From: an uncultured Candidatus Planktophila sp.
GTDB lineage: Bacteria; Actinomycetota; Actinomycetes; Nanopelagicales; Nanopelagicaceae
DNA: 64,000 nt
Direction of reading: 5' to 3'
NCBI GenBank assembly: GCA_964576975.1
Contig: CAZNWM010000002.1
Coordinates: 3,811-67,810, forward strand
Translations under genes and position numbers: made by a program
In this document: positions 2 through 16,986 of the stretch, one piece after another
Layout: the number at the start of each line of letters is the position of its first letter
Numbering within the stretch: position 1 is the first letter of the stretch
Notes under the pieces: generated by a model
Databases searched by the model: none
What the model was told of the DNA's origin: nothing
Seen by the model: the letters and a program-made list of their open reading frames with translations, nothing else

Positions 2-1420
2 GGCTCTGTTCACGCATTAATTGGTGAAAATGGTGCAGGCAAGTCCACTGTTATGAAGATTTTGTACGGAATGCAGCGCCCCGATAGCGGCGAAATTTTG
101 GTCAATGGCCAGAGTGTTCAATTCAAGAAGCCAGCCGATTCAATTGAAGCCGGAATCGGTATGGTTCACCAACACTTCATGTTGGCAGATAATTTCACAG
201 TTTTAGAAAATATTGTTTTGGGTTACGAACCATCTCGTGGCGGCGTTATTGACTTTAGTGCGGCCCGAATAAAGATTAACGAAATGGCTGCGGCTTACGG
301 ACTTTCAGTCGACCCCGATGCACTTATTGAAGATTTAGGTGTGGGACAACGACAGAGAGTTGAAATTCTCAAGGTTTTATATCGTGGCGCAAAGATTCTA
401 ATTTTTGATGAACCAACAGCCGTGCTTGTTCCACAAGAAGTTGATGAGCTCTTTGAAGCGCTACAGGGCTTGCGTAAAGATGGATTAACAGTCATCTTTA
501 TCACCCATAAACTCGATGAAGTCTTGCGAGTAGCAGATGACGTCACAGTTATTCGCGCCGGATCAACTGTGGCAGAAGTAAAGGCAAGTGAAGTCAGTGC
601 CAAAAAATTGGCTGAGTTAATGGTGGGAAGCGAACTTCCATCTCCAGAAATTCACGGAAGTGCTAAGCGCAGCGAAGTAACGCTCTCGCTCTCTCAATTA
701 ACTGTCCCAGCAGAATCAGGTGCACGAAATCTCGTCAGCGATGTCAGCTTTACGTTGCACGCTGGTGAAGTCCTTGGAATTGCTGGAGTAGAAGGAAACG
801 GTCAGAGTGAACTAATCGAAGCAATTCTTGGATTACGCCCTTACACCGGAACAGTTATCTTCAAAGGCGAGCCACTTGATGATGAATCAGTCTCTGAACG
901 TCGCGATATGGGAATTGGATTTATTCCAGAAGATCGCCAACGTCAAGCATTATTAATGTCATCGCCGCTGTGGGAAAACAGAATTTTGGGTCATCAACGT
1001 GGAAAACCTGTCATGAATGGCGCGCTGATTGATCGCAAGGCAACAATGAGTGACACCGTTCGAATTATGCAGGAGTTTGATGTGCGCGCTCCAGGCCCAG
1101 ATACTTTGGCACTTGCTTTATCTGGTGGAAATCAACAGAAGTTTATTGTTGGTCGCGAAATGAGTGGTTCACCAGCATTGCTCTTGGCATCACACCCAAC
1201 TCGTGGCGTTGACGTTGGTGCCCAAGCAGCAATCTGGAATGAATTACGCGCAGCTCGTGAAAAGGGAATGGCTATCGTTCTTATCAGTGCCGACCTCGAA
1301 GAACTCATTGGTTTATCAGATCGACTAATAGTTATGCTCCGCGGATCTGTAACAGCAGAGTTAGATCCTGCAAAGACAACCCCAGAATCACTCGGTTCTG
1401 CAATGACGGGTGCGGCATAA
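2..1420 (+). CDS. Nucleoside/sugar ABC transporter ATP-binding subunit (two NBDs), 5' end truncated by window
   Basis: Frame is open from base 2 (GSVHALIGENGAGKST, Walker A) upstream of the ORF-track Met. It has LIFDEPT, a second NBD with LSGGNQQK and HPTRGVD, and precedes two permeases and cdd/deoA. Confidence 0.93.
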   Translation, partial: GSVHALIGENGAGKSTVMKILYGMQRPDSGEILVNGQSVQFKKPADSIEAGIGMVHQHFMLADNFTVLENIVLGYEPSRGGVIDFSAARIKINEMAAAYGLSVDPDALIEDLGVGQRQRVEILKVLYRGAKILIFDEPTAVLVPQEVDELFEALQGLRKDGLTVIFITHKLDEVLRVADDVTVIRAGSTVAEVKASEVSAKKLAELMVGSELPSPEIHGSAKRSEVTLSLSQLTVPAESGARNLVSDVSFTLHAGEVLGIAGVEGNGQSELIEAILGLRPYTGTVIFKGEPLDDESVSERRDMGIGFIPEDRQRQALLMSSPLWENRILGHQRGKPVMNGALIDRKATMSDTVRIMQEFDVRAPGPDTLALALSGGNQQKFIVGREMSGSPALLLASHPTRGVDVGAQAAIWNELRAAREKGMAIVLISADLEELIGLSDRLIVMLRGSVTAELDPAKTTPESLGSAMTGAA

Positions 1421-2520
1421 TGAAATACAGACCAGGAAAAATTGCACTCGCCATTGCTGCTCCGGTTTTTGCAGCGGTGTTCAGTCTGGCAGTATCTAGT
1501 GCATCACTGATCCTTACCAATAAATCACCTCGTGAAGCTTTTGCTCTTATGTGGGAGTTTGGTACTGGTGCAGGTTCATTAATGGAAGCCGTAAATCTTG
1601 CGACCTCTTATTACATTGCAGCAATTGCAATTGCTCTGACATTTCGCGCTGGTTTGTTCAACATCGGTGTTGAAGGACAACTTCGTTTAGGTTCGCTCTT
1701 TGCAGCGTACTTTGGCGCGATGCTTGTTCTTCCACCAGTGCTGCACATTCTCGCAATATTTTTGATTGCAATGTTTATCGGCGGTTTGTGGGCGGCAATT
1801 GCTGCCTACATGAAGGTCAAGCGCGGTGTCAGCGAAGTTATTTCGACCATCATGCTCAACAGCGTGGCGGGCGGTTTGTCTGCGTACTTATTGTCTAAAC
1901 ACTTTATGGTCAAAGTTGAAGGCAGTAATGACTTGGCAACCAAGCCACTACCTGCCAGCGGTCAGTTCCCAGATTTAATGCCTGTCCTAAAGAAGATGGG
2001 CGTAGAAGAGCAACCTGGTGGTGGCGTTTATGGAATGCTCATTGTCGCCATAATTTTGGGTATCGCATTTTGGTTTGTTGTTAATCGCACACGATTTGGA
2101 TTCGAATTGCGTTCAAGTGGCATGAATCCAATTGCAGCGCGAGTAAGCGGAGTTAACTCCAAGAAGATGACTTTTATTGCTCTAGTCGCAAGTGGTGCGA
2201 TTGCAGGACTTGCTGGCCTACCAACCCTGCTTGGTGACACACATAGTTACACACTTGGATTCCGAGGAGGCGTTGGCTTTACTGCAATTGCGATCGCACT
2301 TCTTGGGCGAAACACAGCACTAGGTATGGCAATTAGTGCCATGTTATTTGGCTTCCTTGAAGTTGCATCACGCACTCTCGAACTTATTGATATTGCCCCA
2401 GAAACGTATGTGATTATGCAAGGTTCAATTCTTCTCAGTGCAGTGATTGCCTACGAAGTGGTACGCAGGTACCAACTAACGCTGCAAAGTCACGCACTTG
2501 CTAAGACAGGTGACAAATAA
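1420..2520 (+). CDS. Nucleoside ABC transporter permease 1
   Basis: Hydrophobic protein with AGLFNIGVEGQ and GVSEVISTIMLN, typical of BMP/nucleoside ABC permeases; TAATG overlap with the ATPase. Confidence 0.9.
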   Translation: MKYRPGKIALAIAAPVFAAVFSLAVSSASLILTNKSPREAFALMWEFGTGAGSLMEAVNLATSYYIAAIAIALTFRAGLFNIGVEGQLRLGSLFAAYFGAMLVLPPVLHILAIFLIAMFIGGLWAAIAAYMKVKRGVSEVISTIMLNSVAGGLSAYLLSKHFMVKVEGSNDLATKPLPASGQFPDLMPVLKKMGVEEQPGGGVYGMLIVAIILGIAFWFVVNRTRFGFELRSSGMNPIAARVSGVNSKKMTFIALVASGAIAGLAGLPTLLGDTHSYTLGFRGGVGFTAIAIALLGRNTALGMAISAMLFGFLEVASRTLELIDIAPETYVIMQGSILLSAVIAYEVVRRYQLTLQSHALAKTGDK

Positions 2521-3770
2521 TGTTAGAAAAAGGCAAGCTCTCAGGAATGCGTCGATCCATAATCATCTTCTTTGGAATTGTCGCAATTCTCTCCATAATT
2601 CGAGTCGTAACGGGTGCATCTGATTTAACAAGCGTTGGAACAGCGCAAGCCGCTTTGTTGCTCTCCGTACCAATTGTTTTGGCAGCTCTCGGTGGTTTAT
2701 TTGCCGAACGTGCTGGTGTTGTAAACATTGGCCTTGAAGGCATGATGATCATGGGTGCATGGGCTGGCGGATTTATTGGAAGCGTTCATGGACCATGGAT
2801 GGGATTAGTCGGAGCAATTGTTTTTGGCGCAGTTGGTGCACTCGTTCACGCAGTTGCAACAATTACATTCGGTGTTGACCATGTTGTATCTGGCGTTGCA
2901 ATTAACATCATTGCAGCAGGTTTAGTTCGCTATATCTCAACTATTTTGGCCCAAGGAGGCTCATGGCCTGGGCCGTCACAGTCACCCGATGTCGAACCTA
3001 TTGGACTAAATGGATTACCAATTCTTTCGGGTGGACATTATTTTGGTTGGAAGAGTCCCGATATTCTTAATTCAATCGGTGAGAAAAACTGGTTCTTGAT
3101 TTCAGATATCTCTCGTGTGTTGCGCGGTTTAACAGGAGAGCTTTCATACGTAACGATGATTGCTATTGCCCTTGTTCCACTGAGTTATTTCCTCCTATGG
3201 AAAACTTCATTTGGATTGCGCTTACGAAGCACAGGTGAATCACCAATTGCCGCAGAGTCACTGGGTGTAAACGTTTACGTAATGAAGTATTGGGGCGTAT
3301 TAATCTCTGGTGGATTTGCTGGATTAGGCGGTGGTTTCCTCGCAATAGTGGCAGCTAATCACTATCAAGAGAATCAAGTAGGAGGCCGCGGATATATCGG
3401 ATTAGCAGCAATGCTCTTTGGTAATTGGCGCCCAGGTGGATTACTTGCAGGTTCTGCACTATTTGGATTTGCTGATGCACTACAACTTCGAGATTCTGCT
3501 GCAATTCACGCACTTATTCTGCTAATAATTGCATTCCTATTGTTTGCATCATGGCGATCATTTAAGAAGGGTCAACGTATTGCAACAATCGTGGCTCTAG
3601 CCCTAGCCGGATTCTTTGTCTGGTTCTTTTTTGCATTTGAAGAACTACCAGGCCAACTTGTAACTATGACTCCATACCTTGCAACATTGATTGTTCTATC
3701 CCTTGCATCGCAACGATTGCGTGGGCCTGCGGCTGCAGGTTTACCGTACAGACGTGGTGGATTGAAATAA
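2520..3770 (+). CDS. Nucleoside ABC transporter permease 2
   Basis: ERAGVVNIGLEGMM and GRGYIGLAAMLFGNWRP motifs; TAATG overlap. Confidence 0.9.
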   Translation: MLEKGKLSGMRRSIIIFFGIVAILSIIRVVTGASDLTSVGTAQAALLLSVPIVLAALGGLFAERAGVVNIGLEGMMIMGAWAGGFIGSVHGPWMGLVGAIVFGAVGALVHAVATITFGVDHVVSGVAINIIAAGLVRYISTILAQGGSWPGPSQSPDVEPIGLNGLPILSGGHYFGWKSPDILNSIGEKNWFLISDISRVLRGLTGELSYVTMIAIALVPLSYFLLWKTSFGLRLRSTGESPIAAESLGVNVYVMKYWGVLISGGFAGLGGGFLAIVAANHYQENQVGGRGYIGLAAMLFGNWRPGGLLAGSALFGFADALQLRDSAAIHALILLIIAFLLFASWRSFKKGQRIATIVALALAGFFVWFFFAFEELPGQLVTMTPYLATLIVLSLASQRLRGPAAAGLPYRRGGLK

Positions 3771-4169
3771 ATGTCGCTCACACCTGATTGGCAGTTATTG
3801 CATGCAACGGCAATTGCTGCGAGCAAAAAAGCCTATGCTCCGTATTCAAAATTTCCAGTAGGTGTTGCAGGATTAGTAAGCGATGGGCGAATAGTCAGTG
3901 GCTGCAACGTTGAAAACGCTAGCTATGGCCTTGGTTTGTGCGCCGAATGCAGCATGACTTCAGAATTGATAATGAGTGGTGGTGGACGCTTGGTCGCTGT
4001 TCTCTGCGTAGATGCTCAAGGTGATTACTTGGCACCTTGCGGACGCTGCAGACAACTTCTTTTTGAACACGGTGGCAATGAGTTGTTACTCATGACGCCA
4101 GATGGACCAATGAAAATGTCAACGATTTTGCCATGGGCATTTGGTCCCGATGATTTAGATCGTAATTAA
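3771..4169 (+). CDS. cdd: Cytidine deaminase (homotetrameric type)
   Basis: AYAPYSKFPVG, GCNVEN, CAE and PCGRCRQ zinc motifs. Confidence 0.95.
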   Translation: MSLTPDWQLLHATAIAASKKAYAPYSKFPVGVAGLVSDGRIVSGCNVENASYGLGLCAECSMTSELIMSGGGRLVAVLCVDAQGDYLAPCGRCRQLLFEHGGNELLLMTPDGPMKMSTILPWAFGPDDLDRN

Positions 4170-4175
4170 CTTTAA

Positions 4176-5465
4176 ATGAGCGCGGTAGAACCATTTTCAG
4201 CTGTAGAGATAATTGCTGCAAAGCGAGATAAGTTCACCCTTACAAATCCACAAATTGATTGGGTTATTGACGCCTATACACGCGGTGTTGTCGCAGATGA
4301 ACAAATGTCAGCATTACTTATGGCAATTTTGCTCAACGGAATGAATTCACAAGAAATCTCTGGCTGGACAAATGCAATGATCAATAGCGGGGAAAAAATG
4401 AATTGGTCCGCACTTGATCGGCCAACAGTTGATAAGCATTCGACAGGCGGCGTTGGCGACAAAATCACTCTGCCACTTGCACCACTTGTTGCGGCTTGTG
4501 GCGCTGCCGTTCCGCAATTATCTGGTCGTGGATTAGGTCATACAGGTGGAACACTCGATAAGTTAGAAGCAATCTCTGGCTGGCAAGCCTCTTTGAGTAA
4601 TGAAAAAATGTTGCAAGTTTTGCAAGAGTGTGGAGCAGTTATTTGCGCAGCTGGTGCAGGTTTAGCGCCAGCGGATAAAAAACTTTATGCCCTTCGTGAT
4701 GTAACAGCAACGGTTGAAGCTATTCCGCTTATTGCTTCATCAATCATGAGTAAGAAAATTGCAGAGGGAACCAGCGCATTGGTACTTGATGTGAAAACAG
4801 GCGCGGGTGCATTTATGAGCGATCCTCTTAAAGCGCGCGAATTAGCACAGACAATGGTCGGCCTTGGAAAAGATGCCGGAGTCAAAACTTTGGCACTAGT
4901 CACGGCCATGGATATTCCATTGGGGCGCACCGCTGGCAATGCTCTGGAAGTTCGTGAATCACTTGAAGTTTTATCTGGTGGCGGTCCTGAAGATGTTGTT
5001 GAATTGACTGTAATTTTTGCTCAAGAAATGTTGGAACTCGCTGGAATTAAAGGTAAAGATCCAGCCAAAGCACTTAAAGATGGTTCAGCAATGGATGTCT
5101 GGCGAAAGATGATTAGCGCGCAAGGTGGAAATCCGGATGCACCTTTGCCGGTAGCAAAAGAAAATCTAACAATCACCGCGGATTCCAGTGGAACAATGCT
5201 TTCTATGGACGCAATGGCTGTCGGAGTTGCAGCATGGAGACTTGGAGCTGGTCGCTCACGACAGGGCGAAAGCGTGCAATCAGGAGCGGGCATCGAAATT
5301 CATAAAAAACCAGGTGAAAAGATCACAGCAGGCGAAGCGATTTATACGCTGCATACGGATACGCCTGAACGATTTGCACGAGCGCAAGAAGTGTTAGAAG
5401 GTAGTGTTGCAATCGGAAGCGGAGAAGTGAAGCGACTCCCACTTATTGTTGAACGAATTAGTTGA
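4176..5465 (+). CDS. deoA: Thymidine / pyrimidine-nucleoside phosphorylase
   Basis: [37 protein letters not shown] and [11 protein letters not shown] motifs. Confidence 0.95.
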
Positions 5466-5484
5466 AATTGGTGAAAAAGTGAGC

Positions 5485-6573
5485 ATGCAGAGTATTCCAA
5501 CAGTAGATCAAATTAAACGAGTTCCAAAAGTCCTTTTGCATGATCACTTAGATGGCGGTCTTCGTCCACAAACGATTATTGATATCGCCAAAAGAATTGG
5601 ATATACCGCACTGCCAACAATGGATGCAGATGAATTAGCAACGTGGTTTCGTGAATCATGCGACTCGGGCTCACTGGTTCGCTATCTGGAAACTTTTAGC
5701 CACACAATTGCGGTAATGCAGACAGAAGAAAACATTATTCAAGTAGCTCGTGAGTGTGCACTTGATCTCGCACGAGACGGTGTTGTTTATGCTGAAGTTC
5801 GCGGTGCGCCGGAGTTGTTTACTGAACAAGGTCTCACTCTTGAACAAGTTGTTCAGGCGACTCTTGCTGGTTATCGCGAAGGCGAAGAGATCGCACGTAA
5901 AGAAGGATTTAATATTCAAGTTCGAGCACTCTTATGCGGTATGCGACAAAATAACCGATCACAAGAAGTCGCCGAACTCGTGGTTAAGTATCGTGACAAA
6001 GGCGTTGTTGGCTTTGATATTGCTGGACCAGAAGATGGATTTCCACCGTCAAACCAACAGGAAACCTTCGAATATCTTCGTCGCGAAGATGCTCACTTCA
6101 CAATTCACGCAGGCGAAGCATATGGACTTCCTTCTATCTGGGAAGCAATTCAGTTGTGCGGGGCAGAACGTCTAGGCCATGGGGTAAGAATTATTGATGA
6201 CATAGATGTTTCTGGCCCAGAACCAAAGTTGGGACAACTGGCTTCATATATTCGAGATCGCAGAATTCCTCTAGAACTCTGTCCTACATCTAATTTGCAA
6301 ACTGGTGCCGCAAAAAACATTGCACAGCACCCAATTGGAGTATTGGCTAAATTGCGTTTTCGCGTAACGTTAAATACTGACAATCGCCTTATGAGCCAAA
6401 CTTCAATGTCTTATGAAATGACTGAAGTTGTTAGGGCATTTAAGTGGGATTTTACTGATTTGCAGAGAGTGACAATTAATGGAATGAAGAGTGCATTCAT
6501 CCCTTACCCAGAACGGCTTGAGATAATTGAAAAGATCATTAAGCCAGGATATGCAGCGATTGCATCTGAATAA
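5485..6573 (+). CDS. add: Adenosine deaminase
   Basis: [20 protein letters not shown] and NTDNRLMS motifs. Start placed at ATG 5485 to avoid overlap with deoA (GTG 5479 is also possible). Confidence 0.93.
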
Positions 6574-7767
6574 ATGATTGATTTTCTCGATCACAAATTC
6601 ATCGAAAATCCTTATCCAGCATTAGAGAAGTTGCGCAGAGAAGGCAAACCTGTCTGGCATGAGGGTGTTGGGATGTATCTAGCTGCGCGCTATGAAGACG
6701 CTAATAACGTGCTTCGCACGAAATCTCTGGGAAGAATATTCAAGGCAAAAGAACCTGAATTTGAGTGGGATGTATTTAACTGGCTTCATTCAGATTCAAT
6801 CCTAGATAGCGAACCACCTAAGCACACACGCTTGCGCTCATTAGTTGCCAAAGCATTTAATCGAAACAAGATTGAAAGCCAAAGACCAGCGATTGAGAAG
6901 ATTACAAATGAATTGCTCGACGCCATAGAATTTAAAGTTCGCGCAGGTCAAACTTTTGATGTGATCTCAGATTATGCCGAACCACTACCGGTTAAAGTCA
7001 TCGCCGCACTCTTAGGATTTCCAGCGGAGGATGAGCACCTTTTAAGACCTTGGTCACAATCTATTGTGAAGATGTATGAAGTTAATCCATCTGTAGAACA
7101 TCAAAATGAAGCAAAGGCAGCCGCAAAAGCATTTGCCGATTATGTACTTGGTCTCATGCTTGAACGCAAGAAAAATCCTGGTACAGATTTGATTAGCGAT
7201 CTTGCTGCCGTTGAAGAGAGTGGGGAGACGTTAAGCGCACACGAACTGGTAGCAACGTGCGTTCTCTTACTTAATGCCGGTCATGAGGCAAGTGTTAATG
7301 CATTTGGAAACGGAATGGTTGCTGCCTTGTCGCGCCCAGATCAAGCAGCGTTATTGCGCACCAAATCACGGGAAATAGCAGAGACCGCTGTTGAAGAGTT
7401 CTTAAGATTCGATGCCCCGCTACATTTATTTGAGCGAACAGCAACTGCTGATACTGAAATTGGGGGAGTCACTGTTCGAGAGGGGCAGAAAATAGCGTCA
7501 TTACTCGGTTCTGCTAATCGCGACGAAAGCGTATTTGAGAACTCAAATGAGATGAATTTGTTGCGCAATCCAAATCCACATATTGGTTTTGGCGCTGGCA
7601 TTCATTTTTGTTTAGGTGGCCCGCTTGCCAGACTTGAAATGGCAATATCGCTACCCGCACTCTTTGAACGATTTAACGATATTGAATTAGCGAGCACCCC
7701 GAAGCGACGCCCAACATTTGTTCTGCGTGGTTATGAAAGTGTGGATATCTCAGCTGCAGTTGGATAA
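6574..7767 (+). CDS. Cytochrome P450
   Basis: I-helix LLNAGHEAS, K-helix EEFLR and heme motif FGAGIHFCLG; starts immediately after the add stop (TAAATG). Confidence 0.95.
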   Translation: MIDFLDHKFIENPYPALEKLRREGKPVWHEGVGMYLAARYEDANNVLRTKSLGRIFKAKEPEFEWDVFNWLHSDSILDSEPPKHTRLRSLVAKAFNRNKIESQRPAIEKITNELLDAIEFKVRAGQTFDVISDYAEPLPVKVIAALLGFPAEDEHLLRPWSQSIVKMYEVNPSVEHQNEAKAAAKAFADYVLGLMLERKKNPGTDLISDLAAVEESGETLSAHELVATCVLLLNAGHEASVNAFGNGMVAALSRPDQAALLRTKSREIAETAVEEFLRFDAPLHLFERTATADTEIGGVTVREGQKIASLLGSANRDESVFENSNEMNLLRNPNPHIGFGAGIHFCLGGPLARLEMAISLPALFERFNDIELASTPKRRPTFVLRGYESVDISAAVG

Positions 7768-8627
7768 GAAGACTGCGCACCTTTTCTGGTAACACTTAGT
7801 GCGGCAATGCGACAAGCAAATTCAGCCGAACTCTTAGGATCTAAACCTGAAGCAATTGCGAATGAGAAAGAACCTATAAAGCAATCTCCTGCACCAGTTG
7901 AGTCAACGGCTTGGACTTTTGTCGTGGCAATTGAAGTTAATCCACCATCGGTAGAAACTAAAACTGCACCCTTATCTCCTAGAGTAACTATCGAATTCTT
8001 TCCAGGGCGAAACTGTGCAAGTGATTCAGATGTTGGAGCCTTGCCAACGAATTCTTCAAATTCAACTTCGTTTGGAATTAACCAATCAGTGACAGCCAAT
8101 AACTCGGGGGAAAGATCTTCGTACGGAGCAGGATTTAGGATTGTGATTGCACCACGGTCTTTGGCAACTTTAAATGCCGCAGTGGTTACAGATTGGGGAA
8201 TTTCGCATTGACCAAGAACTATAGAGAGTTCAGGAATTGATTTAATTGCGTTGGCAGCGTGGTTTTCATCAAAGTCATGATTGGAACCAGGAACAATCAA
8301 AATTCTGTTTTGACCCTGTGCATCCACCCAGATATGGGCAACACCAGTTGGTAGATCTGAAATCTTTACGTGAGTCGAATTTATCTTTTGATTCTTGAAA
8401 TTTTCTTGTAGCGATTTACCGAAGAGGTCATTTCCTATGCATCCCACCATAAACACATCAGCACCCGCCAGGGCTGCCATAACGCCTTGGTTGGCACCTT
8501 TTCCACCAAAGCCTGTTGTAAATAGATTTCCATAAAGAGTCTGGCCAGGTTGCGGTAGAACATCGGCATAGCAAGTCAGATCCATACTTGCACTGCCTAC
8601 GACAGCGATCACGGGTGCTTTAGCCAT
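7731..8627 (-). CDS. rbsK: Ribokinase (PfkB family)
   Basis: GGKGANQ, PNEVE and DSTGAGDCFIG PfkB motifs; 3' end overlaps the P450 by 37 nt. Confidence 0.88.
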   Translation of the reverse strand: MAKAPVIAVVGSASMDLTCYADVLPQPGQTLYGNLFTTGFGGKGANQGVMAALAGADVFMVGCIGNDLFGKSLQENFKNQKINSTHVKISDLPTGVAHIWVDAQGQNRILIVPGSNHDFDENHAANAIKSIPELSIVLGQCEIPQSVTTAAFKVAKDRGAITILNPAPYEDLSPELLAVTDWLIPNEVEFEEFVGKAPTSESLAQFRPGKNSIVTLGDKGAVLVSTDGGLTSIATTKVQAVDSTGAGDCFIGSFSFAIASGLDPKSSAEFACRIAALSVTRKGAQSSYPTAAEISTLS

Positions 8628-8638
8628 GAAATAGATAA

Positions 8639-8644
8639 TAGGCT
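8639..8644 (+). promoter_or_regulatory. Probable -10 box of a leaderless transcript (nucleoside hydrolase)
   Basis: TAGGCT lies 6 nt before ATG 8651 and there is no Shine-Dalgarno. Confidence 0.55.
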
Positions 8645-8650
8645 AACTCC

Positions 8651-9598
8651 ATGAATTCCACACCCGTCATTCTTGATGTAGATACCGGAATTGATGATGC
8701 ATTCGCGGTTTTGTTCGCCGCTAGACATCCATCAATAAAATTGTTGGGCGTTACATGCGTTGACGGAAATACGAATGTGGCACAAGTTGTAGCAAACACA
8801 CTTCAGGTTCTAGATGCTGCAGGAGCAGGAGATATTCCAGTTGCACGAGGTGCTATTCGACCACTCTTAGGTCAATCACAGTACGCAGAGTATGTACATG
8901 GTGAAGATGGAATGGGTGATTTAGGTTTACCACCTTCTCGCAGAAGTGTGGATTCACGATCTGCAATTGAATTGCTCCGTGATTTAGTTGATCAATCACC
9001 TGAGCCAGTGACTCTAGTTCCTTTGGCGCCATTAACTAACATTGCCCTGTTCTTACGTGCATTTCCTGAGAGTGCAAAGAAGTTAAAGCGAATTGTTTTG
9101 ATGGGCGGTTCAGCTTCTGCAGGAAATGCAACCCCTGCTGCCGAATTTAATGTGTGGCATGACCCTGAAGCCGCTGCCATTGTTTTCCAAAGTGGAATTC
9201 CAATCACAATGTATGGACTTGATGTTTTTATGCGTCCTTGCGTCAGCGCAGAAGAAGCGGACAAACTATCTAAATCCGCCGATCCATGTGCACAATTCGC
9301 TGGAAGATTAATCAATGCATTCGTTGAACGTATTGGTTCACCAGTTACTTTGGGGGATTACGGCGCTGTAGCGAGTGTGATTGCACCAGAATTAGTTACC
9401 ACGCAGCGCTTTGATGTAGTTGTTGATACATCTGCAGGTCCTGCTCGTGGCCAAACTATTGTTGATCGCAGACCAGCTCTAGAACTAGAAATTGAACCAC
9501 TCAGATTAGAAAACGCTGCAAAAGTTGATGTAACTCTGGATTTAGATGTTGAAGGTATTCGTCAATTGTGGCTTAAAACAATTGATCCGAACTTTTAA
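8651..9598 (+). CDS. Nucleoside hydrolase (IU-NH/Rih family)
   Basis: DVDTGIDDA Ca-binding motif, HGEDG, APLTN and AEFNVWHDPEAA; the C-terminal HD motif reads GD. Confidence 0.9.
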   Translation: MNSTPVILDVDTGIDDAFAVLFAARHPSIKLLGVTCVDGNTNVAQVVANTLQVLDAAGAGDIPVARGAIRPLLGQSQYAEYVHGEDGMGDLGLPPSRRSVDSRSAIELLRDLVDQSPEPVTLVPLAPLTNIALFLRAFPESAKKLKRIVLMGGSASAGNATPAAEFNVWHDPEAAAIVFQSGIPITMYGLDVFMRPCVSAEEADKLSKSADPCAQFAGRLINAFVERIGSPVTLGDYGAVASVIAPELVTTQRFDVVVDTSAGPARGQTIVDRRPALELEIEPLRLENAAKVDVTLDLDVEGIRQLWLKTIDPNF

Positions 9599-10444
9599 CT
9601 AAACGCCTATGGGGTGCCAGACCGTCTTGGACTCCATAAAGGCCAAGATTCGCGCAGGTGAAGAAATTTCTTTAAATGAGTGAATTCTCTTTAAGTTTTG
9701 CGCACCCGCTTTTTTAACTTCTGCAACTAACTTTGACTCTAAGCCAGATATATCTAAGCCATCGATATCCATGTGAGAAGCAAACCATGGAGCAAGCTCG
9801 GCACTCTTTCCAGTCAAGATGTTTACAACACCTGCAGGAACATCACTAGTTGCAATAACTTCTGCAAGGCTCATTGCAGGCAGAGGAGCACTCTCACTTG
9901 CAAGGACAATCACTGTATTTCCACTAGCGATTATTGGTGCGATACCTGCAACAAATCCAAGGAGTGCAGACTTCTTTGGGGCAATAAATCCCACAACCCC
10001 AAGTGCTTCGGGAATTGTGAAGTTGTAATAAGGCCCAGCGACCGGGTTTGTTGCACCGTCTAGTGCACTGATTTTATCTGTCCAACCCGCATACCAAACT
10101 AGAAGATCGATACTTGCTTCAACTTCATCCTGTGCTTTCTTTGGAGTAACTCCAGTGATTTCGCAAATTTCTGCAGCGAATTGATCGCATCGACCTTCGA
10201 GCATTTCAGCAATTCGGTAAAGGATTTGCCCACGGTTATATGCAGTTGCGTGCGCCCAACCTGATTGCGCAGCACGCGCAGCAACGACTGCATCCTTTAG
10301 ATCTTTGCGAGATGCTAAACATGGATTTGCAATGAATTCACCACGTGCATTTTTGACTTCATATGTGCGACCAGATTCAGTGCGCGGAAATGTTCCACCA
10401 ATAAATAACTTGTATGTCTTTTTCACATCAATGCGCTTACTCAT
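9599..10444 (-). CDS. Truncated aldehyde dehydrogenase-like protein (Rossmann domain only)
   Basis: 281 aa with KLFIGG, W-Y-A-G-W-x-D-K and AGVVNILTG of the ALDH NAD-binding domain. It lacks the ELGGK Glu and the catalytic-Cys domain. Confidence 0.85.
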   Translation of the reverse strand: MSKRIDVKKTYKLFIGGTFPRTESGRTYEVKNARGEFIANPCLASRKDLKDAVVAARAAQSGWAHATAYNRGQILYRIAEMLEGRCDQFAAEICEITGVTPKKAQDEVEASIDLLVWYAGWTDKISALDGATNPVAGPYYNFTIPEALGVVGFIAPKKSALLGFVAGIAPIIASGNTVIVLASESAPLPAMSLAEVIATSDVPAGVVNILTGKSAELAPWFASHMDIDGLDISGLESKLVAEVKKAGAQNLKRIHSFKEISSPARILAFMESKTVWHPIGV

Positions 10445-11876
10445 GAGTTACTCCTTTGAGATAAGCAGTCAGACCATGGCGACCGCCTTCACGCCCCCAA
10501 CCAGACTCTTTGTATCCACCAAATGGACTTGTTGGATCAAATTTATTGAATGTATTTGTCCAGATAACACCAGCCTTTAACTTCTGTGCTGCCCAGAGAG
10601 TCTTAGATCCCTTATCGCTCCAGACACCAGCTGATAATCCAAAGGGAGTGTTATTTGCTTTATCGATACCCTCTTGTGGAGTGCGAAATGTTAAAACAGA
10701 TAGAACTGGTCCAAAGATTTCCTCGCGTGCGATTCTGTGAGATTGAGTAACGCCAGTAAAGATCGTTGGAGCAAACCAGAAACCCTTATCTGGCATTGAA
10801 CACTGTGGACTCCAACGCTCTGCACCTTCGGCGTCGCCGGCAAGTGATAACTCTTTGATTTTCTCTAATTGAGAACGTGAATTAATTGCGCCCAAATCTG
10901 TGTTCTTATCTAAAGGATCTCCCACGCGAATTTTTTCCATGCGCTTCTGTAACTTCTTAATGAACTCATTAGAGATGCTCTCTTGAATAATAAGTCTTGA
11001 CCCCGCGCAGCAGACGTGACCTTGGTTAAAGAAAATTCCATTAACGATTCCTTCTACGCTCTCATCAATAGCAGCATCTTCAAAGACGATATTTGCTGCT
11101 TTACCACCAAGTTCGAGAGTCACACTCTTTGATGTTCCTGCAACTGATTCAGCGATGATTTTTCCAACTTCAGTCGAACCGGTAAATGCAATTTTGTTAA
11201 TGCCAGGATGATTCACAATCAGAGCACCAGTTGATCCATCGCCGGTAACAATGTTTACAACTCCTGCAGGTAATCCTGCTTGCTCACATACTTCTGCGAA
11301 TAGCAGTGCGGTCAGGGGCGTGGTTTCAGCAGGTTTAAGTACAACTGTGTTGCCGGTGGCAAGGGCGGGAGCCACTTTCCACGCCAACATCAAAAGTGGA
11401 AAATTCCAAGGAATAATCTGTCCTACAACTCCGTGAGGTTTTGCTTTAGTTCCAACACCGGCAAATTCGAGTTTGTCTGCCCAGCCCGCGTGATAAAAAA
11501 AGTGCGCAGCAGCAAGTGGAACATCAACATCACGTGATTCTCTAATCGGTTTTCCATTGTCTAAACTTTCAAGGACTGCAAATTCGCGCGCACGTTCTTG
11601 CAGAATTCGAGCTATGCGAAAAAGGTACTTTCCACGTTCGCGCCCTGAAAGTTTGGACCAATGTATATCCAAAGCTTTCTTGGCAGCCTTAACTGCTGCA
11701 TCAATATCTTTTTTGCTGCCGAGTGCAATAGAACTAAGGACTTCTTCGGTGGCAGGGTTAATTGTTGGGAAGTGCTTTTCGCCTGCAACGAATTTTCCAC
11801 CGATGTAATGCCCGTACTTGGGCTTGATGGAGACGCTGGCGCGAGATTCAGGCGCCGGTGCATATTCGAAAGTCAT
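10437..11876 (-). CDS. Aldehyde dehydrogenase (full length)
   Basis: IIPWNFP, KPAE, FTGST, LELGGKA, GHVCCAGSR (catalytic Cys), EEIFGP and PFGGYKESG. Confidence 0.95.
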   Translation of the reverse strand: MTFEYAPAPESRASVSIKPKYGHYIGGKFVAGEKHFPTINPATEEVLSSIALGSKKDIDAAVKAAKKALDIHWSKLSGRERGKYLFRIARILQERAREFAVLESLDNGKPIRESRDVDVPLAAAHFFYHAGWADKLEFAGVGTKAKPHGVVGQIIPWNFPLLMLAWKVAPALATGNTVVLKPAETTPLTALLFAEVCEQAGLPAGVVNIVTGDGSTGALIVNHPGINKIAFTGSTEVGKIIAESVAGTSKSVTLELGGKAANIVFEDAAIDESVEGIVNGIFFNQGHVCCAGSRLIIQESISNEFIKKLQKRMEKIRVGDPLDKNTDLGAINSRSQLEKIKELSLAGDAEGAERWSPQCSMPDKGFWFAPTIFTGVTQSHRIAREEIFGPVLSVLTFRTPQEGIDKANNTPFGLSAGVWSDKGSKTLWAAQKLKAGVIWTNTFNKFDPTSPFGGYKESGWGREGGRHGLTAYLKGVTHE

Positions 11877-11889
11877 GCGAAATTCTCCA

Positions 11890-12846
11890 TTAATCGATAG
11901 TCACGTACTGAGGACTAGCGTAGTAGCCATCATCCATTTTCATGCGTTGCATCAATAAATCATTAAGAAGTGCGCTGGCGCCAATTCTAAAAAGAGATGG
12001 AGTTAGCCACTCTGGACCCGCAGTCTCATTAACCAATACCAATTGCTTGATTGCATCCTTGGTGTTGCGAATTCCGCCCGCAGGTTTTACGCCAATGCGC
12101 ACGCCTGCCATTTCATAGAAATCACGAACAGCCTCAAGCATGACAAGTACGACAGGGGGAGTAGCTGCAGGCGCAACTTTGCCTGTTGAAGTTTTGATGA
12201 AATCCGCTCCGGCTAGCATCGCTAAATAAGAAGCCTTTCGAACGTTGTCATAAGTAACCAATTCGCCAGTTTCAAAGATAACTTTTAGGTGGGCTTTTTC
12301 CCCACAAATCTCTTTAATCGCAACTATTTCATTAAACACTTCTATGTAATTGCCCGATAAAAAAGCACCGCGATCGATAACCATATCAATTTCGCCAGCA
12401 CCGGCATCTAAAGCATCTTGTGTATCTTGAATCTTAACTTTCATTGACGCACGACCAGATGGAAATGCAGTTGAAACAGCGGCAACTGGCACGTGCGCGC
12501 CACCGATTGCATCTAAATGTTTTCTGGCAACTGAAACCATGTCGTTGTACACGCAGACTGCACCAACACTTGGAACACTTAAATCAGTGGGATCTGGTCG
12601 AACCGCTTTCGAACACAGTGCCTGAACTTTTCCTACGGTGTCAGCTCCTTCAAGCGTTGTTAAGTCCACCATTGTGATTGCAGTATCAATAGCCCATCTC
12701 TTACTTGTGGTTTTTATGCTTCTAGTAGCAAGCATCGCAGCGCGAGCATCTGCACCAACTGCGTCGACACCAGGTAGTTTATTTAGAAACTCTTTTAAAG
12801 ATGAATCAGAACCATCAATGAGGCCGTAGTACTTCATGCACCTCAT
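11890..12846 (-). CDS. deoC: Deoxyribose-phosphate aldolase
   Basis: DLTTLEG, EIDMVI, LKVIFETGEL, FIKTSTGK and GVKPAGGIR. Exact start uncertain (12846 or 12837). Confidence 0.95.
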   Translation of the reverse strand: MRCMKYYGLIDGSDSSLKEFLNKLPGVDAVGADARAAMLATRSIKTTSKRWAIDTAITMVDLTTLEGADTVGKVQALCSKAVRPDPTDLSVPSVGAVCVYNDMVSVARKHLDAIGGAHVPVAAVSTAFPSGRASMKVKIQDTQDALDAGAGEIDMVIDRGAFLSGNYIEVFNEIVAIKEICGEKAHLKVIFETGELVTYDNVRKASYLAMLAGADFIKTSTGKVAPAATPPVVLVMLEAVRDFYEMAGVRIGVKPAGGIRNTKDAIKQLVLVNETAGPEWLTPSLFRIGASALLNDLLMQRMKMDDGYYASPQYVTID

Positions 12847-12874
12847 CCATTCCCGCTTGATTGAAGCATCTGAA

Positions 12875-14491
12875 CTAAGAGAGTAATTCTCTCAGTGAAG
12901 GGCGTAATTGTTCAAGTAGGGACATTGCAATGGTTTTTTCAGAGTTAACTACTTCTATGTAGCACTTGATCTTCGGCTCAGTACCGCTTGGGCGGATGAT
13001 AATTCGAATGTTCTGTTCTAGCGTGAATCGAAGTCCATCTGTTGGGGGCAAAGAATTTGCAGGCTTTGCTAAATCATCCATTGATGCAACCTTAAATCCA
13101 GCAATTTCCAAGAGTGGATTTGTGCGTAATTTATTCATAATGGTCGAGATAAGAGCAATGTCAGTCACACGAATAGAAATCTGTTCTGTTGCGTGAAAAC
13201 CATAGGTATCCCAGATTTCATCTAGTAAATCAATGAGAGTCTTTCCCTCACTCTTTAGATCAGTTGCAATTTGAGAGAGCAATAATGCCGCAGATATACC
13301 ATCTTTATCATTAACTGTATGTGAATCAACACAGAATCCAATTGCTTCTTCATATCCAAAAATCAGGTTAGGAATCTTGGCAATGTACTTAAAGCCGGTG
13401 AGCGTTTCTACAAAATCTAAATTGTGAGCAGTAGCGATTTTAGACAGAACTGAAGATGAAACTATTGAGTTTGCCAGAGTTCCAGATTGTGTACTTTTTG
13501 CGATAACTTCACCAAGAATTGCGCCAACTTCATCTCCACGAAGCGCTCTCCACCCGAGATCACGATCTTTAATTGCCACCGAGCAACGGTCAGCATCAGG
13601 ATCGTTTGCAATCACCAAATCTGCATCAAAAGTTTTTGCTGTTTCAAGCGCCAGGTCGAGTGCTCCTGACTCTTCGGGATTAGGAAATGGCAATGTTGGA
13701 AAATCAGGATCTGGTTGCGCTTGAGATTGAACAAGAATTAGGGATGGAAAACCTGCGCGATGAAAAACACGTTGCAAAGTTTTGGTGCCAACACCATGCA
13801 TAGCTGTGTAAACAATCTTTAGGTCACCTGGTCGTGGCGCTAGAACTTTTGTTCGATCGATGTATTTTTCGACAATATCTTCATCAAGAATCTGCCAGCT
13901 CGAACTTCGTGTCACTTCTTTGAGTGATTTAATGCTCTTAATGTGAGCTGACATTTGTTTATCCGCAGGAGAAATTATCTGAGAGCCGCGGTAAGTAACT
14001 CCATCAACTTCGCCACCCAAATAAACTTTGTAGCCATTATCGCTTCCAGGATTGTGGCTAGCGGTGACCATAATTCCAACGTCTGCACCCAATTCATTTA
14101 CTGCAAAAGCGAGTACGGGTGTTGGCAAAGGGCGTGGCAACACTGAAACATTAAGACCAGCACCACTAAAAATCTCAGCACTTATGCGTTCAAAAACTTC
14201 TGATCCATGTCTAGCATCGCGCCCAATCACAACGGATGTAAGTGCACGCTCTTTCATGTATTTAACAATTCCAGCTGCAGTTTTTCCCACAACGGCTTGA
14301 TTCATGCATGAAGGACCAGGTCCAAGTGGACCCCGCAAACCAGCAGTGCCGAACTCCAGGAACCCTGCGAAAAATTTACGTAGAGTTACTTCATCTGCTG
14401 CTTCAATGAGTGCGTTTAACTCTGCAACTGTTTTTGGATCTGGATCATCTTCAATCCATGCACGAACTTCGGCGAGAAGATTTGAATCCAT
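12875..14491 (-). CDS. Phospho-sugar mutase (alpha-D-phosphohexomutase family), probable phosphopentomutase
   Basis: FGTAGLRG, TASHNP (phospho-Ser), DPDADR, GYEEAIG and RPSGTEPKIK; lies between PNP and deoC. Confidence 0.88.
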   Translation of the reverse strand: MDSNLLAEVRAWIEDDPDPKTVAELNALIEAADEVTLRKFFAGFLEFGTAGLRGPLGPGPSCMNQAVVGKTAAGIVKYMKERALTSVVIGRDARHGSEVFERISAEIFSGAGLNVSVLPRPLPTPVLAFAVNELGADVGIMVTASHNPGSDNGYKVYLGGEVDGVTYRGSQIISPADKQMSAHIKSIKSLKEVTRSSSWQILDEDIVEKYIDRTKVLAPRPGDLKIVYTAMHGVGTKTLQRVFHRAGFPSLILVQSQAQPDPDFPTLPFPNPEESGALDLALETAKTFDADLVIANDPDADRCSVAIKDRDLGWRALRGDEVGAILGEVIAKSTQSGTLANSIVSSSVLSKIATAHNLDFVETLTGFKYIAKIPNLIFGYEEAIGFCVDSHTVNDKDGISAALLLSQIATDLKSEGKTLIDLLDEIWDTYGFHATEQISIRVTDIALISTIMNKLRTNPLLEIAGFKVASMDDLAKPANSLPPTDGLRFTLEQNIRIIIRPSGTEPKIKCYIEVVNSEKTIAMSLLEQLRPSLRELLS

Positions 14492-14495
14492 AAAC

Positions 14496-15326
14496 CTAGA
14501 GTAACTTCGGAATTACTTCCTTGAGAAGAGTTCCCATGCGAGTTGCTGCGGCTTTTCCAGCGGCAATAACTTCTTCGTGATTGAGTTTTTCTCCTGTTAC
14601 ACCTGCAGCAGCATTTGTTACTAGGGAGATTCCAAGAACTTCTGCACCTAATGCGTGCGCTGCGATTGCTTCTGGAACTGTAGACATTCCAACTAAATCT
14701 GCGCCCATAGCTCTCATCATCAGAATCTCAGCAGGCGTTTCATATGTTGGTCCGCGCCAATGGACGTAGACACCTTCTGCTAGTGATGAATCTGCGCTCT
14801 TCACAATAGATCTGATGCGCTTGCTGTATAGATCAGTTAAATCAACAAAGTGCGCCCCGATTAGTGGTGATGTTGCAGTGAGAGAAATATGGTCACGAAT
14901 CAAAACTGGTTGACCGACCGAATAATCTTTATTAATTCCGCCACATGCATTTGTAAGAATAACCACTTTGCAACCAGATTTAACGGCAGTTCTGACGCCA
15001 TGAACAACAGGTTCGATTCCTTTGCCTTCATATAAATGTGTACGTCCAAGAAAAACAAGTGCCCGTAAAACTTTGTCCCCACTCTTTATGGAATAGGAAC
15101 GAATCTTTCCTGAGTGACCTTCGACAGCAGGTGGAAGAAATCCAGTGATTTCATCAGCGTTGCATTCGTAATCTGGCGTACCGAGTGCTGAAACTGCATC
15201 GACCCATCCAGAACCCATAACTAATGCGATGTCATGAGAAATTACGCCTGTGCGTTTGGCAATATCAGCCGCGGCTTGTTCGGCAGCCTTCAATGGATCG
15301 CTATAGAGCAGTTGGTCACTTGTCAT
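14496..15326 (-). CDS. punA: Purine-nucleoside phosphorylase (trimeric PNP-I type)
   Basis: VMGSG, GRTHLYEG, LTNACGG, GPTYETPAE, GMSTVPE and SLVTN. Confidence 0.93.
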   Translation of the reverse strand: MTSDQLLYSDPLKAAEQAAADIAKRTGVISHDIALVMGSGWVDAVSALGTPDYECNADEITGFLPPAVEGHSGKIRSYSIKSGDKVLRALVFLGRTHLYEGKGIEPVVHGVRTAVKSGCKVVILTNACGGINKDYSVGQPVLIRDHISLTATSPLIGAHFVDLTDLYSKRIRSIVKSADSSLAEGVYVHWRGPTYETPAEILMMRAMGADLVGMSTVPEAIAAHALGAEVLGISLVTNAAAGVTGEKLNHEEVIAAGKAAATRMGTLLKEVIPKLL

Positions 15327-15352
15327 GTGTCAATAATGTCACAAAGCGCATT

Positions 15353-15955
15353 TCATTTCATTAACTTCACTTCTGGCCAGCTATATCCAAGTTGATTCAT
15401 CGCGCTACGAAGAAAAGGCATTGAGATACCAACAACATTTGTGTAGTCACCTTCGATAGTTGGAATGAAAGGGGAGCTGTAACCATCGAGAGTAAAGCCA
15501 CCCGCTACGTGGAGAGGTTCACCAGAATTAATGTAATCATCTATTTCAGCATCTGACATATCTGCAAAAGTGACTTTCGTAGTTATTCGATCACTTATCT
15601 CTCGCCCTTGGCTTGTATCGATCACACAATGACCCGTATGCAAATATCCGGATTTTCCTCGAACTCTTTGGGCCCGCTGCCTAGCAACGTGTGCAACACC
15701 GGGCTTGCCGAGTGATTCACCTTCGAATTCAAAGGTTGAGTCGCAACCAATAATGATTGCTGGAAAATCGATTTGTTCACGAATTGTGTGCGCTTTAGTG
15801 ATTGCCAATGCAATAACCATGTCTTGAGGTGCCATGGCATTAAAGAAATCCGTTTCCTCATCAACATGACTCACCATGATTTGTGGAAACAGCCCAGCAG
15901 ACTCCAAGAGTCTGCGTCTAGAAGTTGATTGAGAAGCAAGAATAATTTTTGGCAT
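15353..15955 (-). CDS. maf: Maf-family nucleoside triphosphate pyrophosphatase
   Basis: ILASQSTSRR, GCDS, GKP, AGGFTLDG and NVVG. Confidence 0.9.
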   Translation of the reverse strand: MPKIILASQSTSRRRLLESAGLFPQIMVSHVDEETDFFNAMAPQDMVIALAITKAHTIREQIDFPAIIIGCDSTFEFEGESLGKPGVAHVARQRAQRVRGKSGYLHTGHCVIDTSQGREISDRITTKVTFADMSDAEIDDYINSGEPLHVAGGFTLDGYSSPFIPTIEGDYTNVVGISMPFLRSAMNQLGYSWPEVKLMK

Positions 15956-16023
15956 TTAGTTATCTTGCCCTGAATCACGGTCCATACCCGTACGGTACTA
16001 GTGGAGGGTATTGAATTACGTCA

Positions 16024-16986
16024 GTGGCGAGCCAAGCCGCCAATAAGATAACTTCTGTGAAATCTGAATACCCAGTCGTTGGCGTAATTGGCGCAGGCCA
16101 ACTCGCACGAATGATGATTGGGCCAGCAACAGCGTTGGGCATTAAGTTAATTCCGTTCGCATCAAGTAACGAAGATAGCGCTGCACAAGTAACGCATTGC
16201 GTGATTGGTGATTACAAAGATCTTGAAGCAGTAAAGAAATTCGCACAACAGTGCGATGTTGTCACCTTCGAGCACGAACTAGTTCCCTTAAGCATCATAA
16301 AAGCCTTAGAAGTATCTGGCGTAAGAGTCCGTCCAGGATCTGAAACTCTCGAGCATTCACGCCAGAAAAAGAACACCGCAGATTCAATAGATTTTGATTA
16401 CGAAATTGCTGTACTCGTTGCCCGTTCGCCACACGCTCAAGCAACTACTTGGGCACCAACACACGTAGTTAAGAGTGACGGAGTATGCACGATGACAATT
16501 ACTCCGGTACCTCACATGAGCACTCAGATGAACGAACAGGCACAAAAAATTGCACTAGATACTGCTGCGAAAGTAAAACTGATTGGCGTAATGGAAGTTC
16601 AGATTCTTGTAAAAAATGAAGAATTACTTGTGAATAAACTTGTCATGCACCCAAGTACTTCAGGTTATTGGAGTATTGACGCTTCACGAACGAGCCAATT
16701 CGAACAGCATCTTCGTGCAATTCTTGATCTTCCACTCGGCGATCCATCCATGACAAATGACTTCGCCGTAATGGGAAACATTGTCGGAAAGAATAAGACC
16801 GATATGTATCGCCCATACCTTCACTTAATGGCGCGAAACCCTTCGCTCAAGTTTCATATGTATTCAAAGCACGTACGTCCAGGTCTTGAGGTTGGTCACA
16901 TCAACGCTTTTGGAAAAGACCTTGCAGAATTGCAATCAGAAATAGAGCACGCTGTTGATTACATGAGTGGAGAAATTGATGAATGA
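16024..16986 (+). CDS. purK: PurK (N5-CAIR synthase) homolog with internal deletion of the ATP-grasp B domain and altered catalytic motifs
   Basis: IGAGQLARMM, TFEHE, ARSPH, SQFEQHLRAILDLPLG and actinobacterial C-terminus DMYRPYLHLMAR. The K-x-x-R-G-G-Y-D-G-K-G segment is absent. Function doubtful. Confidence 0.8.
   Translation: MASQAANKITSVKSEYPVVGVIGAGQLARMMIGPATALGIKLIPFASSNEDSAAQVTHCVIGDYKDLEAVKKFAQQCDVVTFEHELVPLSIIKALEVSGVRVRPGSETLEHSRQKKNTADSIDFDYEIAVLVARSPHAQATTWAPTHVVKSDGVCTMTITPVPHMSTQMNEQAQKIALDTAAKVKLIGVMEVQILVKNEELLVNKLVMHPSTSGYWSIDASRTSQFEQHLRAILDLPLGDPSMTNDFAVMGNIVGKNKTDMYRPYLHLMARNPSLKFHMYSKHVRPGLEVGHINAFGKDLAELQSEIEHAVDYMSGEIDE

Follow-up and report, generated by a model that had tools for sequence, protein, structure and literature searches.

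Two overlapping genes on the minus strand of a 64,000-nucleotide (nt) stretch of genomic DNA from an uncultured Candidatus Planktophila sp. (contig CAZNWM010000002.1; the whole stretch is referred to as the window) encode proteins of 479 and 281 amino acids (aa), which almost certainly represent a split homologue of the aldehyde dehydrogenase (ALDH) known as ALDH16. The split is real and old. The pair stands directly behind deoC, the gene of deoxyribose-phosphate aldolase (DERA), and we lean towards the view that its products make up a heteromeric ALDH16 which would act as the last enzyme of a nucleoside catabolism operon and oxidize the acetaldehyde released by DERA. The original prediction for this locus had given the stretch 9599-11876, the sizes of both open reading frames (ORFs) and their overlap, all of which proved exact to the base (Table 1).

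Reviews of 2021 and 2025 present ALDH16 solely in its fused form and give no physiological substrate for the enzyme (PMC8160307, PMC12041015). The C-terminal domain of ALDH16 binds no nucleotide and drives the formation of an unusual dimer; it mimics the second protomer of classical ALDH dimers, and the ALDH16 dimer mimics the classical tetramer (PMC12041015, PMC8160307). Statements on crystal structures in this work are based on these two reviews and on alignments with entries of the Protein Data Bank (PDB). Neither a split form nor a link with deoC was found in the literature searched on ALDH16, DERA/deoC, deoxyribose catabolism, GapMind and SCO4912-4914, a search that did not extend to the primary structure paper. 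The enzyme family and its fold are known, whereas the heteromeric gene organization, its dominance across phyla and the invariant association with deoC appear to be unreported.

The large subunit

The Pfam Aldedh profile matches the 479-aa protein over positions 4-457 of 461 (E = 6.5e-162). Its best sequence match in the PDB comprises residues 10-476 of the Loktanella ALDH16 (6MVR), with 587 bits and ~52% identity, and the next family is ALDH1A2 with 414 bits. The motifs IPWNF, LKPAE, FTGSTEVG, LELGGK, VCCAGS and EEIFGP are present, so the protein has the catalytic Asn, Glu and Cys as well as the NAD site. Residues were compared, in ALDH2 numbering, across three sets: large or N-terminal modules (195 unique sequences), stand-alone small proteins (149) and C-terminal domains of fused proteins (76). 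Residues W168, N169, K192, G245, S246, T247, G250, E268, C302, E399 and F401 were invariant in the large or N-terminal modules (195/195), in accord with the catalytic Cys and Glu that had been read from the sequence of the large ALDH. In the numbering of the large subunit itself the catalytic triad N158, E255 and C290 (N165/E261/C295 in 6MVR) is likewise invariant in 195/195.

The model of the large subunit (predicted local distance difference test, pLDDT, of 79) has 6MVS and 6MVR as its leading fold matches, at 52% identity, and all of its first three fold matches are ALDH16. Measured from GWADK to IPWNF, the hairpin region is shortest in the large modules of ALDH16 (29 aa), longer in a set of six classical ALDHs (33-38 aa) and longest in the small subunit (40 aa); the model of the large subunit shows no hairpin. 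The C-terminus of the large subunit, which is modelled with low confidence, is 2-3 residues shorter than that of some classical ALDHs.

The small subunit

Only positions 7-233 of the 461 in the Aldedh profile are matched by the 281-aa protein. Its best PDB match is residues 500-766 of 6MVR (E = 4e-46; 161 bits versus 118 bits), with ~39% identity and an alignment that reaches the last residue and pairs the terminal ESKTVWHPIG with EVKTIWVPYG of 6MVR. The AlphaFold model, obtained with an alignment of 66 sequences (pLDDT 96.8), has a hairpin at residues 131-147 and a C-terminal beta-strand at 270-278 (ESKTVWHPIG). A Foldseek search with this model returned 6MVU, 6MVR and 6MVS first, with a template modelling (TM) score of 0.89 over 285 columns, whereas classical ALDHs span just ~250 columns. 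The profile coverage and the predicted strand bear out the proposal that this gene encodes only an NAD-binding-like domain and a terminal strand.

Counterparts of N169, K192 and G250 are absent in all 149 split small subunits and 76 fused C-domains, and the segment bearing E268, C302 and E399 is missing from every one of them, in agreement with the description of the small protein as catalytically empty. On the sequence evidence the small protein is an ALDH that has lost exactly its catalytic domain and kept a Rossmann-like domain, the hairpin and the C-terminal strand; it lacks the canonical NAD contacts and is incapable of catalysis.

Both subunits scored higher with ALDH16 than with other ALDHs, a comparison that the original prediction had put forward as a check on its proposal that the pair matches the ALDH16 architecture. 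The proposal held, the Loktanella ALDH16 being the best match by sequence and by predicted fold. It also held in neighbour-joining trees (100 bootstraps, against six classical ALDHs), in which ALDH16 was monophyletic in 99/100 replicates for the large or N-terminal modules and in 100/100 for the small or C-terminal ones.

The junction and the reality of the split

The two genes overlap by 8 nt (10437-10444; ATGAGTAA), which include the stop codon of the first gene and the start codon of the second, out of frame: GGA GTA ACT CAT GAG TAA is overlapped by ATG AGT AAG. The sequence AAAGGAG lies at 10451-10457, 6 nt ahead of the ATG of the small gene. A fused gene hit by a single-base error would give frames that overlap in this way, and the small ORF could be regarded as an artefact, either one half of a fused gene split by a frameshift or what is left of a tandem ALDH duplicate in decay. 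A stop codon and a start codon are, however, both present at the junction in more than 190 independent loci, with at least four different geometries. Among the 76 junctions scored, the distance was -8 nt in 42, 0 (abutting) in 12, -4 in 11 and -1 in 3, and every one has a stop and a start codon despite the varied geometry. The small gene moreover has its own ribosome-binding site, its catalytic domain has been removed precisely with the C-terminal strand kept, it stands alone in some genomes, and its homologues form >100 stand-alone clusters of ~280 aa at the 50% identity level. The ratio of non-synonymous to synonymous substitutions (dN/dS) relative to relatives was 0.03-0.12 for the small gene, 0.02-0.07 for the large gene and 0.03-0.06 for deoC, and the small gene is, by this measure, under purifying selection. 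The comparative data rule out a sequencing frameshift as well as a decaying duplicate, and the probability that we assign to an artefact is negligible.

Contigs from lake metatranscriptomes cross the large/small junction (10095-10915) and the deoC/large junction, which is evidence of expression. Metatranscriptome contigs from two runs join position 12568 to 12951, skipping 382 nt in which deoC starts and the mutase gene ends; the shorter side of this join is only 34 nt, and a variant strain or an alignment artefact may account for it.

Distribution of the split and fused forms

Each set of loci consists of the best 80 matches of one scan and is not a random sample, and some contigs occur in two sets. 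The closest locus, OZ254155.1, encodes proteins 94-99% identical to those of the window across most of the genes compared. The 80 best genomic matches of the small protein are all actinobacterial (among them Nanopelagicales, Streptomyces, Amycolatopsis and Lentzea), with the order deoC-large-small, and one scan that started from distant small subunits gave this order in Bdellovibrionota, Bacteroidota, Gemmatimonadota, Verrucomicrobiota, Planctomycetota, Acidobacteriota and Ignavibacteria. Altogether over 200 loci have the large-small arrangement, which, like the E-value of the small protein with the ALDH16 C-terminal domain (4e-46), lies far beyond chance. Large and small genes are neighbours in 78/80 actinobacterial and 61/78 multi-phylum loci, and in most of these the stop and start codons overlap or abut. 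A search of 1.8 billion representative proteins gave 572 clusters at E < 1e-30, and the top 150 of them are nearly all stand-alone proteins of ~270-300 aa. Streptomyces coelicolor has deoC as SCO4914 and an ALDH-family gene as SCO4913; SCO4913 is presumably the large and SCO4912 the small subunit.

Small genes standing alone were seen in metagenome-assembled genomes (MAGs) of Phycisphaerales, Fimbriimonadales, Spirochaetota and Thermoanaerobaculia (loci L168, 5977-6855; L170, 5983-6858; L231, 5968-6891; and L236), where they adjoin genes for a methyltransferase, a short-chain dehydrogenase, a CAP-domain protein and UbiA; no large subunit or deoC was found within 6 kb of them. One Opitutaceae locus (L198) was considered as a possible fused ALDH16 and rejected, its translation having an in-frame stop between the modules. 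The 833-aa protein P0250 (HEX5367631.1, from an Acidimicrobiales MAG) is a fused ALDH16-like protein within the otherwise split clade; it has a ~90-residue Pro/Ala-rich linker and has lost the catalytic residues, and from its sequence it looks like an independent secondary fusion and a bacterial pseudoenzyme. Some records appear mislabelled or mis-binned (L008, L086, L092 and L195). A 'Streptomyces griseus' MAG has a locus of the Nanopelagicales type and a 'Henriciella pelagia' MAG a Bacteroidota-like split locus, and fused ALDH16 genes of the Rhodobacterales type occur in a 'Nocardioides marinus' assembly and a 'Luminiphilus' MAG.

The neighbour-joining trees of the large and the small modules have, as point estimates, the same two groups, split and fused, the split group spanning many phyla and the animal ALDH16 (Lymnaea) clustering with the fused Rhodobacterales clade. 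Monophyly of the fused group was recovered in 84 and 43 of 100 replicates and that of the split group in 57 and 57 of 100; the bipartition thus has weak to moderate support (43-84), and either fusion or fission may have come first.

Association with deoC

The deoC product scores 167.9 bits with TIGR00126 (cut-off 117.3), its best PDB match is E. coli DeoC (1JCL), and the Schiff-base lysine motifs FIKTSTGK and KPAGG are kept. Its 318 aa include a ~55-residue N-terminal extension in comparison with E. coli DeoC (259 aa). The deoC-type genes beside ALDH16 modules in other phyla encode proteins 50-59% identical to DeoC of the window.

Adjacency to deoC, whose tabulation for the fused and the split forms had been suggested at the outset, turned out to be stronger than could then be known. 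Among loci whose flank was long enough to tell, the gene directly upstream of the catalytic module was deoC in every case: 63/63 in the actinobacterial set, 59/59 in the multi-phylum split set and 70/70 in the fused Rhodobacterales set, or 192/192 across the three scans. The fused loci were collected with the C-domain of the crystallized Loktanella ALDH16 (6MVR) as the query; the 80 best loci carry fused ALDH16 genes for proteins of ~766 aa and are nearly all from Rhodobacterales, the few records with other labels looking like mis-binning or contamination. Wherever the flank suffices, deoC is directly upstream of them on the same strand. This holds for Loktanella gaetbuli, whose C-domain is 95% identical to that of 6MVR and in which the other neighbours are unrelated (alpha-amylase, DUF1523 and DUF6638). 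A scan seeded with another fused protein, P0268, gave more Rhodobacterales loci and one Pseudokordiimonas locus, all with deoC upstream, and beyond these only generic ALDHs; P0268 probably does not come from a sampled prokaryote.

Proposed enzyme and its alternatives

The two overlapping genes would provide the halves of an ALDH16-type enzyme as separate polypeptides. To such an enzyme the large subunit would bring the NAD+ site, the Cys/Glu/Asn machinery and a shortened oligomerization hairpin, and the small subunit a degenerate Rossmann-like domain together with an intact beta-flap made up of hairpin and C-terminal strand. The fused Loktanella ALDH16 suggests, through homology, that the flap of the small subunit packs on the large catalytic domain; the small subunit would in this way supply in trans the beta-flap that the large one seems to have lost and replace the partner protomer of the classical ALDH dimer. 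Two pairs of large (L) and small (S) subunits could build an (LS)2 assembly, a mimic of the classical tetramer, while the 8-nt stop/start overlap may couple translation and give a stoichiometry of ~1:1. The pair would catalyse the last step of a deoxynucleoside operon composed of purine nucleoside phosphorylase (PNP), pentose-phosphate mutase, DERA, ALDH-L and ALDH-S, converting the acetaldehyde from DERA to acetate with NAD+ as the acceptor.

By analogy with the fused enzyme, the large and small subunits are likely to form a heteromer, which the original prediction had envisaged as an obligate heterodimer. According to a competing explanation the large protein is an autonomous homo-oligomeric ALDH, and the small one has a separate role as a regulator, a sensor or a partner that binds some other protein; a role of this kind has been proposed for human ALDH16A1, a pseudoenzyme. 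The large protein has indeed kept every catalytic and NAD residue, the small gene is unlinked from the large gene and deoC in some loci of Phycisphaerales, Fimbriimonadales, Spirochaetota and Thermoanaerobaculia, and the residues invariant in the small family (R77, E80, D123, K124, H224 and W276) exceed simple needs of the fold. Such a separate role is nevertheless difficult to reconcile with the adjacency of the two genes in most loci, with the fusion of the modules in one chain in Rhodobacterales and animals, with a hairpin that is shortened in the large and full in the small subunit, and with the solved fused enzyme, in which the C-domain builds the dimer (reviewed in PMC12041015 and PMC8160307). 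We consider it distinctly unlikely.

Within the heteromeric ALDH16, acetaldehyde is the substrate that we favour, albeit with reserve. It is preferred to glyceraldehyde-3-phosphate because the nearest non-ALDH16 relatives are ALDH1/2-class enzymes and the acetaldehyde dehydrogenase ExaC, and because the active-site motifs are probably of the ALDH1/2 class. In particular, VCCAGS, in which a Cys precedes the catalytic Cys, and NKFDPTSPFGG are presumably of ALDH1/2 type and unlike the Arg-lined phosphate site of GAPN. Acetaldehyde is favoured also because it is the DERA product without another sink, the same logic as in DERA microcompartments (PMC11585597). A heteromeric ALDH16 acting on something else, be it glyceraldehyde-3-phosphate (as GAPN does), deoxyribose, or medium-chain or lipid aldehydes, seems unlikely to us. 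For such a substrate speak the release of glyceraldehyde-3-phosphate by DERA, the bacterial ALDH16 activity reported in the reviews, which concerns hexanal-type aldehydes only, and the fact that the ALDH pair reaches none of the curated equivalog cut-offs of NCBIfam. Against it, the invariant place directly after deoC in the three sampled sets points to a DERA product, the motifs are presumably not GAPN-like, and glycolysis already drains glyceraldehyde-3-phosphate, whereas acetaldehyde, being toxic, requires a sink.

Several observations weigh against a heteromeric enzyme that consumes acetaldehyde. The Loktanella enzyme is active on hydrophobic medium-chain aldehydes such as hexanal (PMC12041015), and adjacency does not identify a substrate; glyceraldehyde-3-phosphate is a further product of DERA. 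The large subunit, which keeps every catalytic residue, might function alone, and the confidence of its model is low at residues 443-479. No large gene lies in the upstream flank of the small gene in 5/78 multi-phylum loci, where the surroundings are unrelated, and nine multi-phylum loci have an insert between the large and small genes, so tight linkage is not universal. In one of the Opitutaceae loci (L187) a gene for a POT/PTR2-family transporter (4471-5877) separates the large from the small gene, with deoC still upstream of the large one. The RNA contigs, finally, are assemblies from related strains and may include carried-over DNA. As a separate observation, the gap between the large and small genes is similar in size to that of L187 in five further Opitutaceae loci (L190, L211, L222, L225 and L237).

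A wider reading, which we regard as doubtful when taken as a whole, would join DERA with ALDH16, in its split or fused form, in a dedicated two-step module that might even be a physical complex handing acetaldehyde from one enzyme to the other, and would take this module as the ancestral function of all ALDH16 proteins. The two-gene form would then precede the fusion: a tandem duplication would have been followed by the loss of the catalytic domain from the second copy and later by fusion in the alphaproteobacterial/eukaryotic lineage. If this were true, the link of ALDH16A1 to purine salvage and urate (HPRT) would be a relic of a role in nucleoside catabolism. The link of human ALDH16A1 to urate, which the original prediction had mentioned, and to gout agrees with the literature (PMC9351246); its tie to the operon described here is speculation.

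Genomic surroundings

The ~16 kb around the ALDH pair form an island of nucleoside uptake and catabolism as judged by Pfam matches (Table 1). On the minus strand the genes for Maf, PNP, the mutase, DeoC and the large and small subunits follow each other with gaps of 26, 4, 28, 13 and -8 nt, the large gene thus starting 13 nt downstream of deoC. The mutase slot between PNP and deoC is kept in the loci of Nanopelagicales and Streptomyces, and the mutase encoded there is a candidate phosphopentomutase on the strength of its gene context. The window contains a second, shorter mutase of the PGM/PMM family (454 aa; 51366-52730, plus strand), so that the 538-aa copy of the deo operon is probably a specialized paralogue.

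Table 1 Features of the ALDH16 locus and the surrounding nucleoside island (positions in the window)
Feature	Positions	Strand	Basis
ABC transporter ATPase and two permeases	53-3770		Pfam
Cytidine deaminase	3771-4169		Pfam; motifs CAEC and PCGRCRQ seen
Pyrimidine nucleoside phosphorylase	4176-5465		Pfam
Adenosine deaminase	5446-6573		Pfam
Cytochrome P450	6574-7767	plus	Pfam
Ribokinase-family kinase	7731-8627	minus	Pfam
Nucleoside hydrolase	8651-9598	plus	Pfam
Small subunit, ALDH-like, 281 aa	9599-10444	minus	ORF list, 6MVR residues 500-766
Coupling junction: AAAGGAG ribosome-binding site and stop/start overlap	10437-10457	minus	
Large subunit, complete ALDH, 479 aa	10437-11876	minus	ORF list, Pfam Aldedh
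deoC, deoxyribose-phosphate aldolase (DERA), 318 aa	11890-12846	minus	TIGR00126
PGM/PMM-family mutase, 538 aa, candidate phosphopentomutase	12875-14491	minus	all four PGM_PMM domains
Purine nucleoside phosphorylase	14496-15326	minus	Pfam PNP_UDP_1, E = 6.6e-38
Maf-like protein, heads the tightly packed run	15353-15955	minus	Pfam Maf, E = 3.6e-47

The ATG of the P450 gene (6574) abuts the stop of the adenosine deaminase gene (6573) with zero gap; in relatives that have the hydrolase and kinase genes, the gap between kinase and adenosine deaminase fits the size of a P450 gene, which may be conserved there. The nucleoside hydrolase gene on the plus strand and the small subunit gene on the minus strand converge and end on neighbouring bases (9598/9599), which leaves no space for a terminator between them. 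Scans of the whole window for tRNA genes and Rfam families gave no matches, and a scan of 8500-16500 for promoters and terminators gave fewer matches than shuffled sequence and was uninformative for this organism.

Significance

The database names of these proteins are generic ('aldehyde dehydrogenase family protein', 'acyl-CoA reductase-like NAD-dependent aldehyde dehydrogenase'), and the thousands of small-subunit homologues recovered here bear the name of an aldehyde dehydrogenase while being unable to catalyse its reaction. Bacterial ALDH16 would be mostly a two-subunit protein, present in at least seven phyla including Streptomyces and the abundant freshwater acI Actinobacteria. In such genomes the acetaldehyde step of deoxynucleoside catabolism becomes assignable to a candidate ALDH pair. 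Since the split and the fused forms always follow deoC, a concrete substrate can be put forward, namely acetaldehyde from deoxyribose-5-phosphate, and since the form described here has two genes, the role of the non-catalytic module can be studied by omitting one of them. The human member of the family is a dead enzyme with a genetic tie to gout.

Comparison with known systems

The nearest known counterpart is the ALDH16 of Loktanella sp. (PDB 6MVR/6MVS/6MVT/6MVU), the structure of which was reportedly studied by Liu and Tanner in 2019. Both modules of the pair are homologous to it over their full length, the terminal strand KT(V/I)W.P.G is common to both, Asn, Glu and Cys are retained at the catalytic site, the NAD-site residues are missing from the C-module, and the gene lies directly downstream of deoC in near-identical relatives of the Loktanella protein. 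The difference lies in the gene organization: there the modules form one chain, while here they are two polypeptides and the ~23-residue linker is absent. The fusion of the extra module to the C-terminus of the ALDH, a trait of the ALDH16 family as described in the literature, is thus lacking here, as in all loci of the split clade. Animal ALDH16A1 (human; Lymnaea stagnalis, P0234) is built of the same two modules and clusters with the fused bacterial proteins, but it is fused and lacks the catalytic residues (a pseudoenzyme), whereas the large subunit of the window has all of them; the human protein has been linked to urate, gout and HPRT (PMC9351246).

The C-terminal domain of type B/C PutA, according to its description in a review, resembles the small subunit in being an extra ALDH-like Rossmann domain with a beta-flap that binds no NAD+ and replaces the dimer partner (PMC12041015); it is, however, fused to proline dehydrogenase/P5CDH and belongs to a different pathway. 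The classical ALDH1/ALDH2 homotetramers and ExaC are the next-best relatives of both subunits and share the catalytic mechanism, some of them also the acetaldehyde substrate. Each classical subunit is complete, its own hairpin and C-terminal strand forming a domain-swapped dimer, whereas here the flap resides on a separate, catalytically empty protein.

With respect to the pathway, SPU bacterial microcompartments likewise pair an aldehyde dehydrogenase with DERA for the acetaldehyde of deoxyribose-5-phosphate (PMC11585597), but their enzyme is acylating, encapsulated and makes acetyl-CoA, whereas the locus described here has no shell genes and its ALDH is predicted to be non-acylating. The aldolase-dehydrogenase channelling of DmpFG/BphIJ is an analogy for the adjacency to deoC only; the proteins are not related in sequence, and the ALDH of this locus is predicted to belong to the non-acylating enzymes that resemble ALDH1/2.

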